In this document: positions 30,706 through 57,748 of the stretch, piece after piece
Position numbering within the stretch: position 1 is the stretch's first letter
Layout: each line of letters begins with the position of its first letter
Made by a program: the position numbers and the translations under genes
Notes under the pieces: model-generated
Database searches by the model: none
What the model saw: only the letters and a program-made list of their open reading frames with translations
What the model was told of the DNA's origin: nothing
NCBI GenBank assembly: GCA_031425615.1
Contig: JANPJR010000030.1
Location: forward strand, 210,492-274,491
Direction: 5' to 3'
Source of the DNA: Cytophagales bacterium
Lineage (GTDB): Bacteria > Bacteroidota > Bacteroidia > Cytophagales > Microscillaceae
DNA length: 64,000 nucleotides

Positions 30706-30730
30706 TTCCCCCTTTGGGTTTAGGGGGCTT
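30706..30730 (+). promoter_or_regulatory. conserved ~22-nt upstream motif 'CYCTTTG.GGGTTAGGRRGCT', copy upstream of MVP-like gene
   Basis: 'ttccccctttgggtttagggggctt' 20 bp before the ATG. Copies also at 50034-50057 (+, before lgt), 7732-7766 (-, before aguB), 57591-57622 (-) and a degenerate one at 56040-56095 (-, before the ATPase). Confidence 0.5.
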
Positions 30731-30749
30731 TTAATTCCTAATTCCTCTT

Positions 30750-33251
30750 ATGGCAGAAGAAAACCGCGACCGTGACCTTGTACTCGCACCCAATGAATAC
30801 GCATTTATTTCCGACCAAACAAAAGGGAATATTAATGTGTATGTAGGACCTTACAAAACAAGTTTGGCAAATACAGACAAACCTGTAATATTTAATTTTG
30901 ATACCAAACGTTTTGAACGTTGCACACTTGATGAATCTACATTGACTTTTATTACTGCTCCAGAAGGTTGGTATGCAGTAATGAAAAACCCACCAAAAGA
31001 TGGCAACCAACCGAAAACAGGCACTGCGAGTAACCTTGCAGAGTTGAATGTAGGGCGTAAAGTAAATATACCAGGACCCGTGAATTTTGCACTTTGGCCT
31101 GGGCAAATGGCAAAAGTATTGCGTGGGCATAACCTCAGGTCTAATCAATATCTATTGGTACGTGTATATGACGAAATAGAAGCAAAAAAAAATTGGAAAA
31201 ACGCAGTAATTAAAGGTAAAAATGGCGAAGAAATTACTGAAACTTTAGAAATCCCTGATTTGACTATGGGTAAACTTTTGGTCATAAAAGGTGAAAATGT
31301 TTCTTTTTATATTCCACCAACAGGTGTAGAAGTTGTATCTGAATACGAACATGAGGACGAATATACACGCGAAGCTGTTACGTTGGAACGTTTGGAATAT
31401 TGTATTTTGTTGGATGAAAGCGGAAACAAACGCTATATACAAGGTCCTGCGGTCGTTTTCCCTGAGCCATCAGAAGAATTTATTACCAAAGATGAAAAAC
31501 GTAAATATAGAGCAATAGAACTCAACGAAATGTCTGGTTTATATATCAAAGTAATTGCTTCTTATACCGAAAATGGCACTGCTTACAAAGTAGGTGATGA
31601 GTTGTTTATCACAGGCAAAGACCAAATGATATATTATCCACGCCCAGAACACGCACTTGTAACATATGGAGATAGCGAAAAATACCACGCCATCGCCATT
31701 CCCGCTGGAGAAGGAAGGTATTATTTGAATAGAAGAACAGGCACAATCTCTTTGCAAAAAGGTCCTATTATGTTTTTACCTGACCCACGTGAAATTGTAT
31801 TGGTTAAAAGAATTTTGAGGGACAAAGATGTAAATTTGTGGTTTCCTGGTAATACTGAGGCACTCAATTATAATCGCACACTCCAAAAAATAAATACCGC
31901 CAGCAACCAACTTTTTGTGCAAGAAAACGAAATCCAGCAAAATTTCGTTGGGCAAGCACAAGCAGAAATGATGGATGAGTCTGCTACAGAATGGAAAAAA
32001 GATAAAAGCTCATATCAACAAAAACGTAAAAAAGAAAAAGTATCTGAAGAAGTAGCCAGTGAGCAATTTCAACGTGGCTCTACTTTTACGCCACCACGTA
32101 TGCTCACATTGGATAGCAAATTTGATGGAGCAGTTACGATTAACCTTTGGACAGGTTATGCGGTGTTGGTCGTAAGCAAAACAGGCACAAGAAAAGTAGT
32201 GGTAGGACCTCAAAGCTATTTGCTTGAATATGATGAAAGCCTTGAAAATATTGAACTTTCTACAGGCACACCAAAAAACAGCGACAGTACCATCAAAACC
32301 GTTTATTTGCGTGTATTACACAACAAAATTTCTGATATTGTAAATGCAGAAACTGCGGATTATACCCAAATAAGCATTTCGTTGGCATATAGACTTAATT
32401 TTGAGGGAGAGCCCGAAAAATGGTTTAATGTGGAAAATTATGTAAAATTCCTTACTGACCATTTGCGTTCTTTTATTCGCAATGCGGTTAAAAAATATTC
32501 TGTCATGGATTTTTATGCCAATGGCATTGAAATCTTGCGTGATGTGATTTTGGGTAAATCAACCAAAGACGAAAAACGCACAGGAAGATTGTTTGAAGAA
32601 AACGGTATGCGTATCTATGATGTGGAAATATTGGATATTCGCCTTAGTGATGTAAGCGTAGAAAATCTTATCGTAGCTTCACAACAAGATGTCGTAAAAC
32701 AAGCCCTAAGACTGAGTGCAGAAAAAAGAAGGTTGGATTATACCTCAGAAAATGAACGCATTACGCAAGAAATTGCACAAATCCAATCTGAAACTACAAG
32801 GAAGAAAACCGAACTCCAAGTATTGGAAGTGCAAACAGAACTCGCACTTGCACTCACACGCATAGAAAGCGATATACAAGCACGAAGCAAACAACTCCAA
32901 GCTGACCTCGCACAACAAGAAACACTCAATACAATACATACTGCTGACCTCGCACGTAATACTGAAAGCGAAAACGCTGATATTGCACTCGCCCAAAAAC
33001 GACTGGAACAGGATATTATCCGCACACAAAGCGAAGTAAATGCAGTAGCAGAAAAAGCAAAAGCAATTTCGCCCGATTTAATCGCTGCATTGCAGGCATT
33101 TGCAGACAAAGCACTCGCCCAAAAAATGGCGGATTCTATGGCACCGCTTGCAATATTAGGTGGAAGAAGTATCGCAGAAGTATTCTCCAATTTGCTAAAA
33201 GGCACTGTATTGGGCAATGTATTACAAGACAAAGAAAATTTTGGAGAATAA
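30750..33251 (+). CDS. major vault protein (MVP) homologue
   Basis: 833 aa. N-terminus 'DLVLAPNEYAFISDQTKGNINVYVGPYKT' parallels the eukaryotic MVP N-terminus (recalled '[29 protein letters not shown]'). Repeated beta-modules '...GKLLVIKGENVSFYIPPTGVEVV'. 'YCILLDE' parallels 'YCVILDP'. Shoulder-like 'ETADYTQISISLAYRLNFE' parallels 'ETADHARLQLQLAYNWHFE'. ~150-aa A/Q/L-rich cap-helix-like coiled coil, then 'ISPDLIAALQAFADKAL'. Confidence 0.8.
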   Translation: MAEENRDRDLVLAPNEYAFISDQTKGNINVYVGPYKTSLANTDKPVIFNFDTKRFERCTLDESTLTFITAPEGWYAVMKNPPKDGNQPKTGTASNLAELNVGRKVNIPGPVNFALWPGQMAKVLRGHNLRSNQYLLVRVYDEIEAKKNWKNAVIKGKNGEEITETLEIPDLTMGKLLVIKGENVSFYIPPTGVEVVSEYEHEDEYTREAVTLERLEYCILLDESGNKRYIQGPAVVFPEPSEEFITKDEKRKYRAIELNEMSGLYIKVIASYTENGTAYKVGDELFITGKDQMIYYPRPEHALVTYGDSEKYHAIAIPAGEGRYYLNRRTGTISLQKGPIMFLPDPREIVLVKRILRDKDVNLWFPGNTEALNYNRTLQKINTASNQLFVQENEIQQNFVGQAQAEMMDESATEWKKDKSSYQQKRKKEKVSEEVASEQFQRGSTFTPPRMLTLDSKFDGAVTINLWTGYAVLVVSKTGTRKVVVGPQSYLLEYDESLENIELSTGTPKNSDSTIKTVYLRVLHNKISDIVNAETADYTQISISLAYRLNFEGEPEKWFNVENYVKFLTDHLRSFIRNAVKKYSVMDFYANGIEILRDVILGKSTKDEKRTGRLFEENGMRIYDVEILDIRLSDVSVENLIVASQQDVVKQALRLSAEKRRLDYTSENERITQEIAQIQSETTRKKTELQVLEVQTELALALTRIESDIQARSKQLQADLAQQETLNTIHTADLARNTESENADIALAQKRLEQDIIRTQSEVNAVAEKAKAISPDLIAALQAFADKALAQKMADSMAPLAILGGRSIAEVFSNLLKGTVLGNVLQDKENFGE

Positions 33252-33289
33252 AACAGAAAGTAGTTTTTAGAAGCTCAATAAAACAAAAA

Positions 33290-33332
33290 AAATACCTGCA
33301 AAGCATTTAAAGCTTTTGCAGGTATTTTTTCG
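33290..33332. terminator. bidirectional terminator between MVP-like gene and S8 peptidase gene
   Basis: Stem 'atacctgcaaagc/gcttttgcaggtat' with a T-run. Confidence 0.8.
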
Positions 33333-56199: not shown

Positions 56200-57057
56200 T
56201 TAAATCATATCATTTGCTTGTCTTTGTGGGTGAATATGTGCATTATTTTGCGTGATATAAGGCACAAGGTTTGGGTACAGCGTGTGTAATTCGGTATATT
56301 CAGGGGTATTTTCGCGGTATTCGCAGGGTTGCGATTGTACAGTATTTTTGAGGCGAATAAGCACACGCAAGGTAGCAGAGGGTAAATTTTGGGAGGTAAT
56401 AGTAGTTGCCATACCAAACAATCTTTCTACTTTCTCCCCAAAAACATCCAAATAATTACCAATATGTAGCAATATTTGGTAATGAAATTCTTTTGAGCGG
56501 TTTAGACTGTACATATTAATAGCGAGCAAACTATTGCCAAATGCTTTTGCTTCGCCATAATGTGTGTGTCCGCCTTGTCCTTCTATTTTTACATTGCCAT
56601 CAGCGTGTAATATGAATATATTTTTAAGAATACTATTTTGGGTGCTTGCCAAAAAAAACATTTCATAATGTCCAGCGATACTTTTGAATATGCCCTCGTG
56701 ATTGTGCATGATTGGGTACATTTCGCCATTTTCGTTAGGTATTCGCACATATTTTTTTGTATCATAATCATATTCATAATGATTTTTTCTTAGTTCTGTA
56801 TTGATGTGTTCCAAAAAACCGCTTACCGTTTCTTCGCTTGGTGGGTTATCATCTTTTTTCATTTTGGAAATTGTAGAAGCGTTATACTTATTGTTTGTAA
56901 GTTCTTTATTCTGTTTTTCTAATGCTTTCCAAATTTCAAGGGCTTTTCGCACTTGTGCGAGGAGGGCGTTGTGTGTTGTGGTCATGTTGAAGTTTGTTTT
57001 TAAAGATTTTTTTGCAAAATAATGTTTTTCTTCGTTTTCTCGTACAAGGCTTACCAA
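56200..57057 (-). CDS. hypothetical protein (weak metallophosphoesterase-like motifs)
   Basis: 285 aa with 'IMHNHEGIF' and 'GGHTHYGE' in the order expected for phosphoesterase motifs III/VI, but no GDxHG/GDxxDR. Assignment weak and start uncertain. Confidence 0.4.
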   Translation of the reverse strand: MVSLVRENEEKHYFAKKSLKTNFNMTTTHNALLAQVRKALEIWKALEKQNKELTNNKYNASTISKMKKDDNPPSEETVSGFLEHINTELRKNHYEYDYDTKKYVRIPNENGEMYPIMHNHEGIFKSIAGHYEMFFLASTQNSILKNIFILHADGNVKIEGQGGHTHYGEAKAFGNSLLAINMYSLNRSKEFHYQILLHIGNYLDVFGEKVERLFGMATTITSQNLPSATLRVLIRLKNTVQSQPCEYRENTPEYTELHTLYPNLVPYITQNNAHIHPQRQANDMI

Positions 57058-57085
57058 ATTTTTAAATTTGGCAAATCAAGTCTAA

Positions 57086-57433
57086 TTAATATCCCATTCC
57101 GTCCATCAAACTGTCAAAATCACCATCAAAGTCGTCATAATCGCCATATTGTCCATCAGTTAAGGCATTGAAAGTATCACGGTCATAATCATGATTACGA
57201 TAATTATCATCATCTTCATCAAGGTAATTACTCCATTTTTCGGTTTGTTGTGTGATACCTTCCGCAGAAATTACATTTTTTAGATGTTCAAATACTTCAT
57301 CTTCCAAGCAAAAATGGTCAAGATTGCACAAACACCAATCTATATATGAGGTGTCTATTTGTGAAACTTCTTGCAAAGATTTTCCTTCATATTTCCCAAA
57401 AGTAAATTCTGTATTTTCGTTATAAATTTTCAT
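57086..57433 (-). CDS. DUF3820-like small acidic protein (hypothetical)
   Basis: 115 aa with 'FTFGKYEGKSLQEVSQIDTSYIDWCLCN' resembling the FGKYKG...DP.Y..W family, followed by a D/Y/G-rich acidic tail. Confidence 0.45.
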   Translation of the reverse strand: MKIYNENTEFTFGKYEGKSLQEVSQIDTSYIDWCLCNLDHFCLEDEVFEHLKNVISAEGITQQTEKWSNYLDEDDDNYRNHDYDRDTFNALTDGQYGDYDDFDGDFDSLMDGMGY

Positions 57434-57748
57434 ATTTTTATGTGTTTAGTGTGTTTTAAAGATTTTTTGGTTAGTTTTCCTTTAAATTATATTGCAAAGT
57501 TCAACTTTATGTTTTGGAAATAAAAAGACAAGCAGACTTATAAATTTCTTTCCAATTTCCAAGAAATTTCCTAATTTTTTTGACACAAAAAAGCCTCCTA
57601 ACCCACAAAGGAATAAACTGCCTTTGACTGTAAAAACGAAAATACTTTTTGGTACTTAATCCATTTTATACTGATAAATGTTAATTTAGCATCAAAATAA
57701 CCGTTATTTTAGGATTTTAAAGGCATTTTAAAATTATTTTTAAAAAAA

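Follow-up and report, generated by a model that had tools for sequence, protein, structure and literature searches.

A very small interspersed hairpin repeat, frequent in Bacteroidota and their phages, as the probable source of a recurrent motif in a Cytophagales genome

The cyanobacterial small dispersed repeats (SDR) reportedly described by Elhai and co-workers in 2008 are modules of about 21-30 bp that occur dispersed, nested or in tandem, and their mobility is said to have been inferred from presence or absence at orthologous sites, with precise insertion; to our knowledge no transposase is known for SDR, and no polarity relative to the edges of open reading frames (ORFs) has been reported for them. 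Likewise, Rickettsia palindromic elements (RPE) were reportedly found by Ogata and co-workers in 2000 in frame in essential genes, where they add surface peptides. RPEs are 100-150 bp long, belong to Rickettsia only and are not concentrated at ORF edges. The GC clusters of yeast mitochondria are short GC-rich hairpin modules in an AT-rich genome, mostly intergenic and occasionally in frame, and the attC sites of integrons are imperfect inverted repeats with core sites RYYYAAC/GTTRRRY, found together with IntI and cassette genes. According to the main text of a survey of MITEs (transposable elements of the miniature inverted-repeat type), which does not contain the sequence described below, 97.4% of prokaryotic MITEs lie within one genus, and there are MITEs common to Bacteroidota and phages (Nadal-Molero et al., 10.1101/2024.01.18.576219). 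Repetitive extragenic palindromes (REP) and their doublets (REPIN), as known from E. coli and Pseudomonas, are imperfect palindromes of 20-40 nt, present in many copies and often located right after stop codons or between cistrons (PMC3116915, PMC6006769). Here we analyse a recurrent intergenic motif of about 22 nt in a stretch of 64,000 nucleotides, hereafter the window, from a Cytophagales bacterium of the Microscillaceae (assembly GCA_031425615.1, contig JANPJR010000030.1, positions 210,492 to 274,491 of the forward strand). An earlier note on this DNA had described the motif and left its nature open between a regulon operator, an alternative-sigma promoter element and a small mobile repeat. 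We consider it likely that the motif represents copies, now decaying, of a very small interspersed repeat frequent in Bacteroidota and their phages, for which we use the name arm.

The repeat unit and its copies in the window

The earlier note had quoted four copies of the motif and a degenerate fifth, and all five were found in place. With its consensus, CYCTTTGNGGGTTAGGRRGCT, and a tolerance of up to 3 mismatches, the window yields seven matches, as against none in every one of 100 dinucleotide-preserving shuffles. An independent scan with the consensus of the repeat family, based on Hamming distance and allowing run-length variants, returned the same seven copies at up to 6 differences and again nothing in shuffled sequence; two of them, 25633(-) and 51173(-), come in addition to those already noted. 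Since the window has only 29-40% G+C, the 25-nt motif stretches, with about 60-70% G+C, stand out from it. When all are oriented alike, each of the seven is preceded by (A)TTC and five carry a T-run after GCT, and the distance from copy to ATG ranges from 12 to 158 nt. No tRNA or tmRNA was detected in a scan of the window, and no Rfam model matched it at gathering score. The copies, with a possible eighth in last place, are as follows:

30706..30729 (+): TTCCCCCTTTGGGTTTAGGGGGCT, the best-preserved copy (2 differences against the family consensus), with its G-rich end 20 nt ahead of the ATG (30750) of a vault-protein homologue; it folds through CCCCCT/AGGGGG (-11.2 kcal/mol, z=-2.8) and is the sole window copy flagged as terminator-like.
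50033..50056 (+): TTCCCCTTTGAGGGTTAGGAAGCT, 4 differences, 12 nt before the ATG of lgt (50069); weak fold (z=-0.8).
51173..51197 (-): a copy in the last codons of lgt, where the plus strand reads AGCCCCCAAGCCCCCAAAGGAGGAG; the lgt ORF reads through it in frame (..SPQAPKGG.., tail ..SPQAPKGGASSQEGI*) to the stop at 51220.
56064..56087 (-): CTCCCCTTTGTGGGCTGGGTGGCT, a degenerate copy with 6 differences, 30 nt before the ATG (56033) of an AAA_15/NsnB-like ATPase; fold of -13.8 kcal/mol on the G strand and -16.3 kcal/mol on the C strand (z about -3).
57592..57616 (-): TTATTCCTTTGTGGGTTAGGAGGCT, 5 differences, weak fold, between divergent genes, 158 nt ahead of the ATG (57433) of an ExoX-like_C ORF.
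7732..7754 (-): TTCTCTTTGGGGGTTAGGGAACT, 5 differences, fold not significant, 112 nt before the ATG of a CN-hydrolase (aguB-like) gene and 89 nt past the stop of the upstream gene.
25633..25656 (-): TTCCTCTTTGGTGGTTAATGGGCT, 5 differences, fold not significant, between convergent genes; its C-rich strand follows, at 35 nt, the stop (25597) of a Na+:dicarboxylate symporter ORF.
1271..1295 (+): TTATGCCTTTTGGCATTAGAGGGCT, a possible eighth copy of uncertain membership, very degenerate (7 differences), 97 nt before an ATG at 1393; it retains the inner hairpin ATGCC/GGCAT (fold z=-1.7 and -2.3), and shuffles give 0 matches at up to 7 differences and 0.6 at up to 8.

The location of the motif upstream of genes, as first described, holds for five of the seven copies; the copy at 25633(-) follows a stop codon and that at 51173(-) sits inside the end of lgt. 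The 7-bp stem reported around the degenerate copy, CCACCCA (56066-72)/TGGGTGG (56092-98), is real and encloses the copy at 56064. The window copies are degenerate versions, with 2-6 differences and with interruptions in their G and C runs, of a unit of about 25-27 nt. A fold significant against shuffles was obtained for two of the seven (30706 and 56064); most window copies are decayed and have lost their hairpin potential.

The arm was defined from the unbiased flanks of viral matches as RTT-CCCCC-TTY-GGGGG-YTR-GGGGG-MT, about 25 nt in length. A scan of one genome per species (GTDB) with the pattern YCTTTGNGGGTTAGGRRRCT found the arm in at least 117 genome stretches, almost all of them from Bacteroidota; a further 118 viral stretches were retrieved from IMG/VR with CCCCCTTYGGGGGYTRGGGGG, and these are genuine phage contigs carrying tape-measure and tail-fibre genes. 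Among the 80 bacterial matches listed, about 73 were named Bacteroidota, including Flavobacterium, other Flavobacteriaceae, Cytophagales, Marivirga, Saprospiraceae, Prevotella, Paludibacter and Bacteroidaceae, and spanning Flavobacteriales, Cytophagales, Bacteroidales and Saprospiraceae; five of those listed fell outside the phylum label (one Fibrobacter locus, two from a metagenome-assembled genome (MAG) labelled Leptospirales and two from an unclassified MAG). In 125 instances the positions left free in the pattern (-5..-1, N and RRR) proved almost invariant, and the information content drops to about zero at -8 and +20, which gives the unit (A/T)(A/G)TTCCCCCTTTGGGGGTTAGGGGGCT sharp boundaries.

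In 827 kb of seeded bacterial loci, 218 arms were counted at up to 6 differences, shuffles giving none, and the window itself holds 7 arms in 64 kb. The density of the arm is patchy, since none was found in 255 kb of other Bacteroidota loci (80 loci with REP-associated tyrosine transposases, RAYT) and four loci from relatives of the window (10-17 kb each) hold 0-1 arm apiece. No match was found in the plasmid collection. In the collection of isolated phages the sole significant match was a perfect arm, GACCCCCTAACCCCCAAAGGGGGAA, in the Planktothrix phage PaV-LD (HQ683709.1, 2474-2501; locus L322), in frame in a gene for a replication-related protein and directly after ACGGACAAACCGTC iterons and an AT-rich stretch, apparently an origin. 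This perfect arm in a cyanophage suggests that the arm is not strictly confined to Bacteroidota. The viral contigs L131 and L152 are grouped with this observation of an arm in a replication gene. Weak matches to replication-origin iterons of the lambda type (E 2-7) were judged to be due to chance.

The genes next to arms have no function in common, and include dut, purE, thiolase, pyrG, tgt, PorP and phage tape-measure and tail-fibre genes. When 1005 ORFs from 117 loci were clustered, no recurrent transposase or nuclease emerged, the recurrent clusters being generic ATPases, the aminoacyl-tRNA synthetases (aaRS) that host insertions and an orthologous fad operon. Highly expressed phage genes were not enriched before arms, the genes in that position coding for tape-measure, tail-fibre and unknown proteins. 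At seven loci with perfect copies, Rfam in E-value mode returned only spurious sub-threshold matches resembling miRNA or sRNA. Full-text literature searches for the arm sequence, its variants and the peptides it encodes gave nothing relevant, and keyword searches gave general REP and MITE papers only; the arm family thus appears to be undescribed so far.

Placement, folding and turnover of the arm

Arms are found almost exclusively at ORF edges. The G-rich 3' end of the arm faces the adjacent ORF edge, whether start or stop. At 0-4 nt after a stop codon, in bacterial loci, the C-rich strand is the sense strand in 62 cases and the G-rich strand in 0, and at 0-9 nt before an ATG the G-rich strand is sense in 57 cases and the C-rich strand in 2. 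All seven window copies obey this rule, and the promoter-facing orientation to which the earlier note had drawn attention is real and forms part of it, the G-rich end pointing toward a start or a stop alike. Among arms less than 200 nt apart there are 53 inverted, outward-facing '-+' pairs (AGCCCCC..GGGGGAA, spacer, TTCCCCC..GGGGGCT) and no '+-' pair, and among those more than 200 nt apart 19 '+-' as against 4 '-+'. Taken together, these orders mean that coding blocks on either gene strand are flanked by arms with their G-rich ends inward. The pair spacers measure 11-189 nt and are unrelated between loci, with the exception of a compact element of about 70 nt with a palindromic spacer that recurs five times in MAG JAAFKA01 (L006, L034). 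Where a pair touches ORFs on both sides, 18 of 20 lie between co-directional genes. Where '-...+' arms are separated by more than 200 nt, the DNA in between holds ordinary genes and no transposase. On phage contigs most arms point the same way, with the C-rich strand as sense, along genes that are co-directional; 72 of them lie within 0-9 nt of a stop codon, the next ATG following about 25-40 nt beyond.

About 20% of the arms are read through by long ORFs. At eight loci, pairs of arms lie in frame in class I aaRS (ValRS and others), and UvrA contains a single one in frame. Comparison of the ValRS of L034 with that of T. thermophilus (1GAX) revealed insertions of 33 aa and about 35 aa exactly at the two arm pairs. 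The peptides encoded are of the SPLTPKGG and IPPLGVRGL types, and the SPQAPKGG of the lgt tail is of the same type; the C-terminal tail of Lgt in the window is repeat-derived. Given that arms are translated in different frames, it is the DNA that is conserved and not the peptide, and a conserved peptide was rejected as an explanation on this ground.

The consensus arm folds into a 6-bp hairpin, CCCCCT/AGGGGG, with a 9-nt loop (-10.3 kcal/mol), and an inverted pair of arms forms a stem of about 25 bp (-53 kcal/mol for L043). Substitutions are unevenly distributed: per site, the C run shows C>T 3-5 times as often as the G runs show G>A, to the same extent in stop-adjacent and start-adjacent arms. 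We infer from this asymmetry that the G-rich DNA strand is constrained to form a hairpin tolerant of G·T pairs, independently of the direction of transcription.

Single arms of 22-31 nt are present in one and absent from another of phage contigs sharing about 77-92% identity (L142 versus L218, L207 and L190; L178 versus L174 and L219; L183 versus L207), and the same is seen between the Flavobacterium loci L110 and L008/L068. No target-site duplication was visible when filled and empty sites were compared. Partial-arm tandem duplications also occur, and arms have expanded locally through tandem duplication of sub-units (L051, L107, L029, L024, L190, L145), for example as (TTAGGGGGCT)n; an 18-nt duplication, CTTCGGGGGCTAGGGGGA, is polymorphic between related phages, and some duplicated arrays bear at least four G5 tracts on one strand.

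The nearest available relative of the window is MAG GCA_013297825.1, in which Lgt is 75% and the vault-protein homologue (major vault protein, MVP) 85% identical. It carries perfect arms elsewhere in its genome, and at the orthologous sites 5' of lgt, 3' of lgt and 5' of MVP the arm is absent in 3/3. In its locus L236 there are only TAATTCC heptamers before the ATG of lgt, and Lgt ends in ..ALTRKKKV*, with no repeat tail; in L318 the leader of the vault gene is homologous and lacks the arm. No arm was found upstream of the vault gene in L319-L321, nor upstream of it in more distant relatives (71-73% identity). The window arms so compared (lgt 5', lgt 3' and MVP 5') are lineage-specific.

Proposed origin and competing explanations

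Of the options raised in the earlier note, the small mobile repeat was borne out in so far as the family to which the motif belongs is one of dispersed repeats with indel polymorphism. We hypothesize that the arm is a selfish or semi-domesticated DNA hairpin element of the REP or SDR type, whose spread would rely on the G-rich strand in single-stranded DNA form and on a trans-acting enzyme, presumably other than the RAYT family tested. Intact paired arms would probably double as intercistronic or 3'-end stem-loops.

Several observations weigh against this proposal. No mobilising enzyme was found in the ORF clusters, at the RAYT loci or among the genes between arms, none of the comparisons captured an insertion under way, and the indels yielded no rule for target sites. 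The covariation of the C run with either G run (6 compensatory changes as against 2.7±1.6 expected) was not significant, and it supports no particular pairing, as the runs hardly vary. The fad operon junctions of three Flavobacterium MAGs keep perfect arms while their spacers diverge, in genomes that are closely related (thiolase 92-97% identical). The one-way, C-sense arms along co-directional phage genes resemble a transcript-level signal. The number of arms rises more than 10-fold at 0-4 nt from stop codons and their spacing before ATGs is tight, at 0-9 nt, a distribution that random insertion followed by purifying selection does not predict. Finally, the consensus is identical over several orders, unlike those of ordinary REPs and MITEs, which are genus-specific, and a conserved host factor together with selection would account more readily for breadth across a phylum.

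As a mobile repeat leaves both the phylum-wide identity of sequence and the tight, polar placement at ORF edges unexplained, the idea of a gene-edge signal stays alive. In its wider form, which we regard as a tentative possibility, the arm would be an undescribed, phylum-wide gene-edge element served by a conserved trans-acting machine, either an enzyme mobilising single-stranded DNA at ORF boundaries or a signal for gene ends or translational coupling; arm pairs do connect a gene's stop codon with the start codon of its neighbour, the C-rich strand exiting ORFs and the G-rich strand entering them. In its narrower form, which we hold to be unlikely, it would be a selected punctuation of gene boundaries, read by a conserved Bacteroidota factor, exploited by phages and spread by selection and recombination instead of transposition. 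Such a signal could act directly behind stop codons as a C-rich site at which Rho or a different RNA-binding protein loads or pauses, or as an intercistronic stem from stop to start that couples the translation of neighboring cistrons. A consensus shared by several orders, the extremely tight and polar placement, the two-sided pairs between co-directional genes (18/20) and the intact arms of the fad operon with their diverged spacers all speak for it, as do the phage arms, which lie C-sense 1-4 nt past stops, with about 25-40 nt to the following ATG, and consequently inside polycistronic units. Nevertheless, start-adjacent arms put the G-rich and not the C-rich strand into the mRNA, and with opposite strands at starts and stops a single RNA-level reader cannot explain both classes. 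Moreover, the substitution asymmetry does not depend on which strand is transcribed, the hairpin in sense orientation is followed by an A-rich flank without a U-tract, and arms are tolerated inside ORFs. Punctuation also sits poorly with the non-conservation of the three window arms tested (3/3) at 75-85% protein identity and with the patchy density (0 in 255 kb; 0-1 per relative locus of 10-17 kb).

That the arm is a classical REP or REPIN mobilised by a RAYT (a Y1 HUH transposase) is improbable, despite a considerable likeness: a short hairpin with a conserved extension, present extragenically in high copy, inverted doublets in one orientation only, no target-site duplication, and a G·T-tolerant strand asymmetry that suggests a single-stranded DNA form. 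In addition, RAYTs are common in Cytophagales (PMC6006769). However, the GTAG/GTGG foot is missing, the logos showing RTT and MT flanks; the lone RAYT beside an arm (L024) is flanked by different repeats, of the GGTTGGTGTCGAAATGGC type; the 80 RAYT loci without arms (255 kb) represent one RAYT family, subclass 2.6-like; the arm is missing from the published table of Bacteroidetes RAYT REPs (PMC6006769 supplement); and REPs are lineage-specific, in contrast to the phylum-wide arm.

Ordinary Rho-independent terminators that happen to share a favored GC stem are a very improbable source of the motif. The hairpin is indeed GC-rich, a T-run follows five of the seven window copies on the G-rich strand, and some Cytophagales pairs have their long hairpin bordered by an A-run and a T-run. 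Yet the terminator scan was passed by 1/7 window copies, that at 30706, and the T-runs of the window face an ATG 12-30 nt downstream, where a terminator would silence the gene it precedes. After stop codons, in sense orientation, the hairpin is followed by A-rich sequence; loop and tail are conserved phylum-wide, a conservation for which terminators have no need; copies lie in frame inside ORFs; and the hairpins that clearly look like terminators in this genome are of another kind, long and AT-rich (57745-57788, 24102-24141).

The least probable of the explanations, to which we give next to no credence, is a regulon operator or alternative-sigma promoter element co-regulating the vault protein, lgt, aguB and the ATPase island: five of the seven copies point to a start codon downstream, which in three cases is 12-30 nt away, but two copies lie at gene 3' ends and one of these within an ORF, the largest class of the family follows stops although operators are upstream sites only, the distance to the ATG varies from 12 to 158 nt with no second promoter block, neither the Bacteroidota -7 box TAnnTTTG near arms nor sigma-70-type sites over shuffles are enriched, the lgt and MVP promoters of the nearest relative lack the arm, and across the phylum, in hundreds of species and phages, it flanks housekeeping and phage genes without a theme, so that on position, non-conservation and range of genes and taxa this explanation fails. 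Invertible promoters were rejected as well, as spacers down to 11 nt cannot invert, and a Shine-Dalgarno-like role for the G run is unlikely in a phylum that does not use such sequences.

A false lead is thereby removed, there being no shared operator for the vault-protein homologue, lgt, aguB and the defence-like ATPase. The window copies do not connect their neighboring genes functionally, as the earlier note had supposed, and are lineage-specific, mostly decayed relics. Beyond the window, one consensus extends over Bacteroidota and their phages and has been tolerated repeatedly in essential enzymes, the aminoacyl-tRNA synthetases among them. Should the arm be selfish DNA, it may be the smallest mobile module of wide distribution known from outside the cyanobacteria, and a mechanism is needed for the way it targets ORF boundaries. 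Should it be selected instead, it would be an unrecognised gene-end or coupling signal in Bacteroidota, in which transcription termination and translation initiation are poorly understood and initiation is not led by Shine-Dalgarno sequences. The arm might also serve as a marker linking phages to Bacteroidota hosts, and it is a source of annotation artefacts, namely extended ORFs, spurious short ORFs (SPLTPKGG, PPLGVRGL) and mis-called starts.

Other features were observed in the window and at arm loci. Tandem heptamer arrays of 4-9 units (AATTAGG/TAATTCC, TAATGAT, AATTAAT and others) adjoin many gene starts and ends and resemble the STRR repeats of cyanobacteria. In the window they lie at 18305-18335, 27065-27097, 58960-59025, 59498-59599, 7630-7675 and 30733-30746, and in the relative at L236 9579-9620 and 9960-10000 and at L318 5960-6000. 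The earlier note had described heptamer repeats as following most copies of the motif. They are a separate feature, present at many intergenic sites without it, and the relative has heptamers before lgt and the vault gene with no motif there. On the phage contigs L142 and L174, heptamer arrays of the TTAGTGG type follow arms. The window also contains a 216-nt array at 27134-27349 with a 40-nt period (AAAGGTTTAAAGTTCAAAGGGATTAAGGTTCAAAAAGTTC, 5.5 copies, 92% matches), and related units, TTTAAGGTTCAAAG, flank the 3' end of lgt (51225-51275) and are present in the relative too.

The AT-rich hairpins at 57745-57788 (+) and 24102-24141 (+) are perfect, have 18-20 bp, lie between A- and T-runs and appear to be bidirectional terminators of this genome. 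The ORF at 30750-33251 (+) encodes a bacterial protein homologous to the major vault protein of eukaryotes (Pfam MVP_shoulder, Vault_3), with more than 6700 homologues at E<1e-50, many of them in Microscillaceae, Bernardetiaceae and other Cytophagales. The ORF at 54120-56033 (-) encodes an ABC/AAA_15 ATPase with DUF3696, the best match of which is PADLOC NsnB (E 8e-48), and also matches AbiLi-, AriA- and GajA-like models; upstream of it are an ORF of unknown function (56200-57057) and the ExoX-like_C ORF (57086-57433), and the region 54120-57433 may be a defence island.

Many Flavobacterium arms are joined at their inner end to another conserved hairpin, AAACCCTAYTKACCCCTARTAGGA (stem CCTAYT/ARTAGG, CTAC...GTAG), which forms with the arm a composite of about 55 nt just before ATGs, with the hairpin directly 5' of the arm (L017, L045, L050, L064, L067, L078, L083, L092, L100, L102); this hairpin may be a REP of the GTAG type. 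At L024, 3634-4170 encodes a RAYT-type Y1 transposase (NHIH...YIHHNP) with inverted GGTTGGTGT(C/T)..AAATGGC repeats on both sides, a textbook REPtron unrelated to the arm 730 nt away. Finally, in the long ORF at 848-4396 of L034, ValRS (from residue 241) is preceded in frame by an RloB-like domain (residues 23-222), an arrangement that may be an artefact of ORF calling or a gene fusion in that MAG.

Comparison with known repeat systems

Systems that share single traits with the arm differ from it in others. With attC sites it has in common that its outer ends abut a stop and the next start and that the inner core, GTTAGGG/CCCTAAC, resembles GTTRRRY/RYYYAAC; however, the last core position is off-consensus, the flanked genes are syntenic housekeeping genes and no integrase lies nearby. 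DNA uptake sequences (DUS) are far denser than the arm, which occurs about once per 9-17 kb, and no structured-RNA family of Rfam was matched by the arm, either in the window at gathering score or above threshold at the seven loci with perfect copies. The GC clusters of yeast mitochondria are organellar, belong to unrelated sequence classes and in part have target duplications. RPEs likewise place a palindromic repeat in frame in protein genes, as the arm does in ValRS, other aaRS and UvrA, but length and taxon differ and the likeness is one of analogy only.

The MITEs treated in the main text of the survey (10.1101/2024.01.18.576219) are, like the arm, short non-autonomous inverted repeats of Bacteroidota and of phages, mostly intergenic. 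The arm is instead a single unit of about 25 nt; its pairs are comparable to terminal inverted repeats, with no visible target-site duplication and, save in MAG JAAFKA01, with unrelated spacers.

REP and REPIN sequences come nearer. A short palindrome, extragenic copies and inverted doublets that form long hairpins, no target duplication and a supposed action as single-stranded DNA are all common ground, together with the preference for sites right after stops or between cistrons. The arm differs in having no GT[AG]G foot and no cognate single-copy RAYT with the same repeats, in its phylum-wide sequence, which is not found beside the tested RAYT family, and in its strict polarity at ORF edges, frequent in-frame copies and presence in phages. 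Cyanobacterial SDR belong to another phylum and their sequences are apparently different, but they too are dispersed modules of up to 30 bp, present or absent at orthologous sites, with neither transposase nor target duplication, and in view of the perfect arm in the cyanophage PaV-LD a connection with them is conceivable. In its behaviour, the arm would seem to be closest to REP/REPIN and to these cyanobacterial small dispersed repeats.

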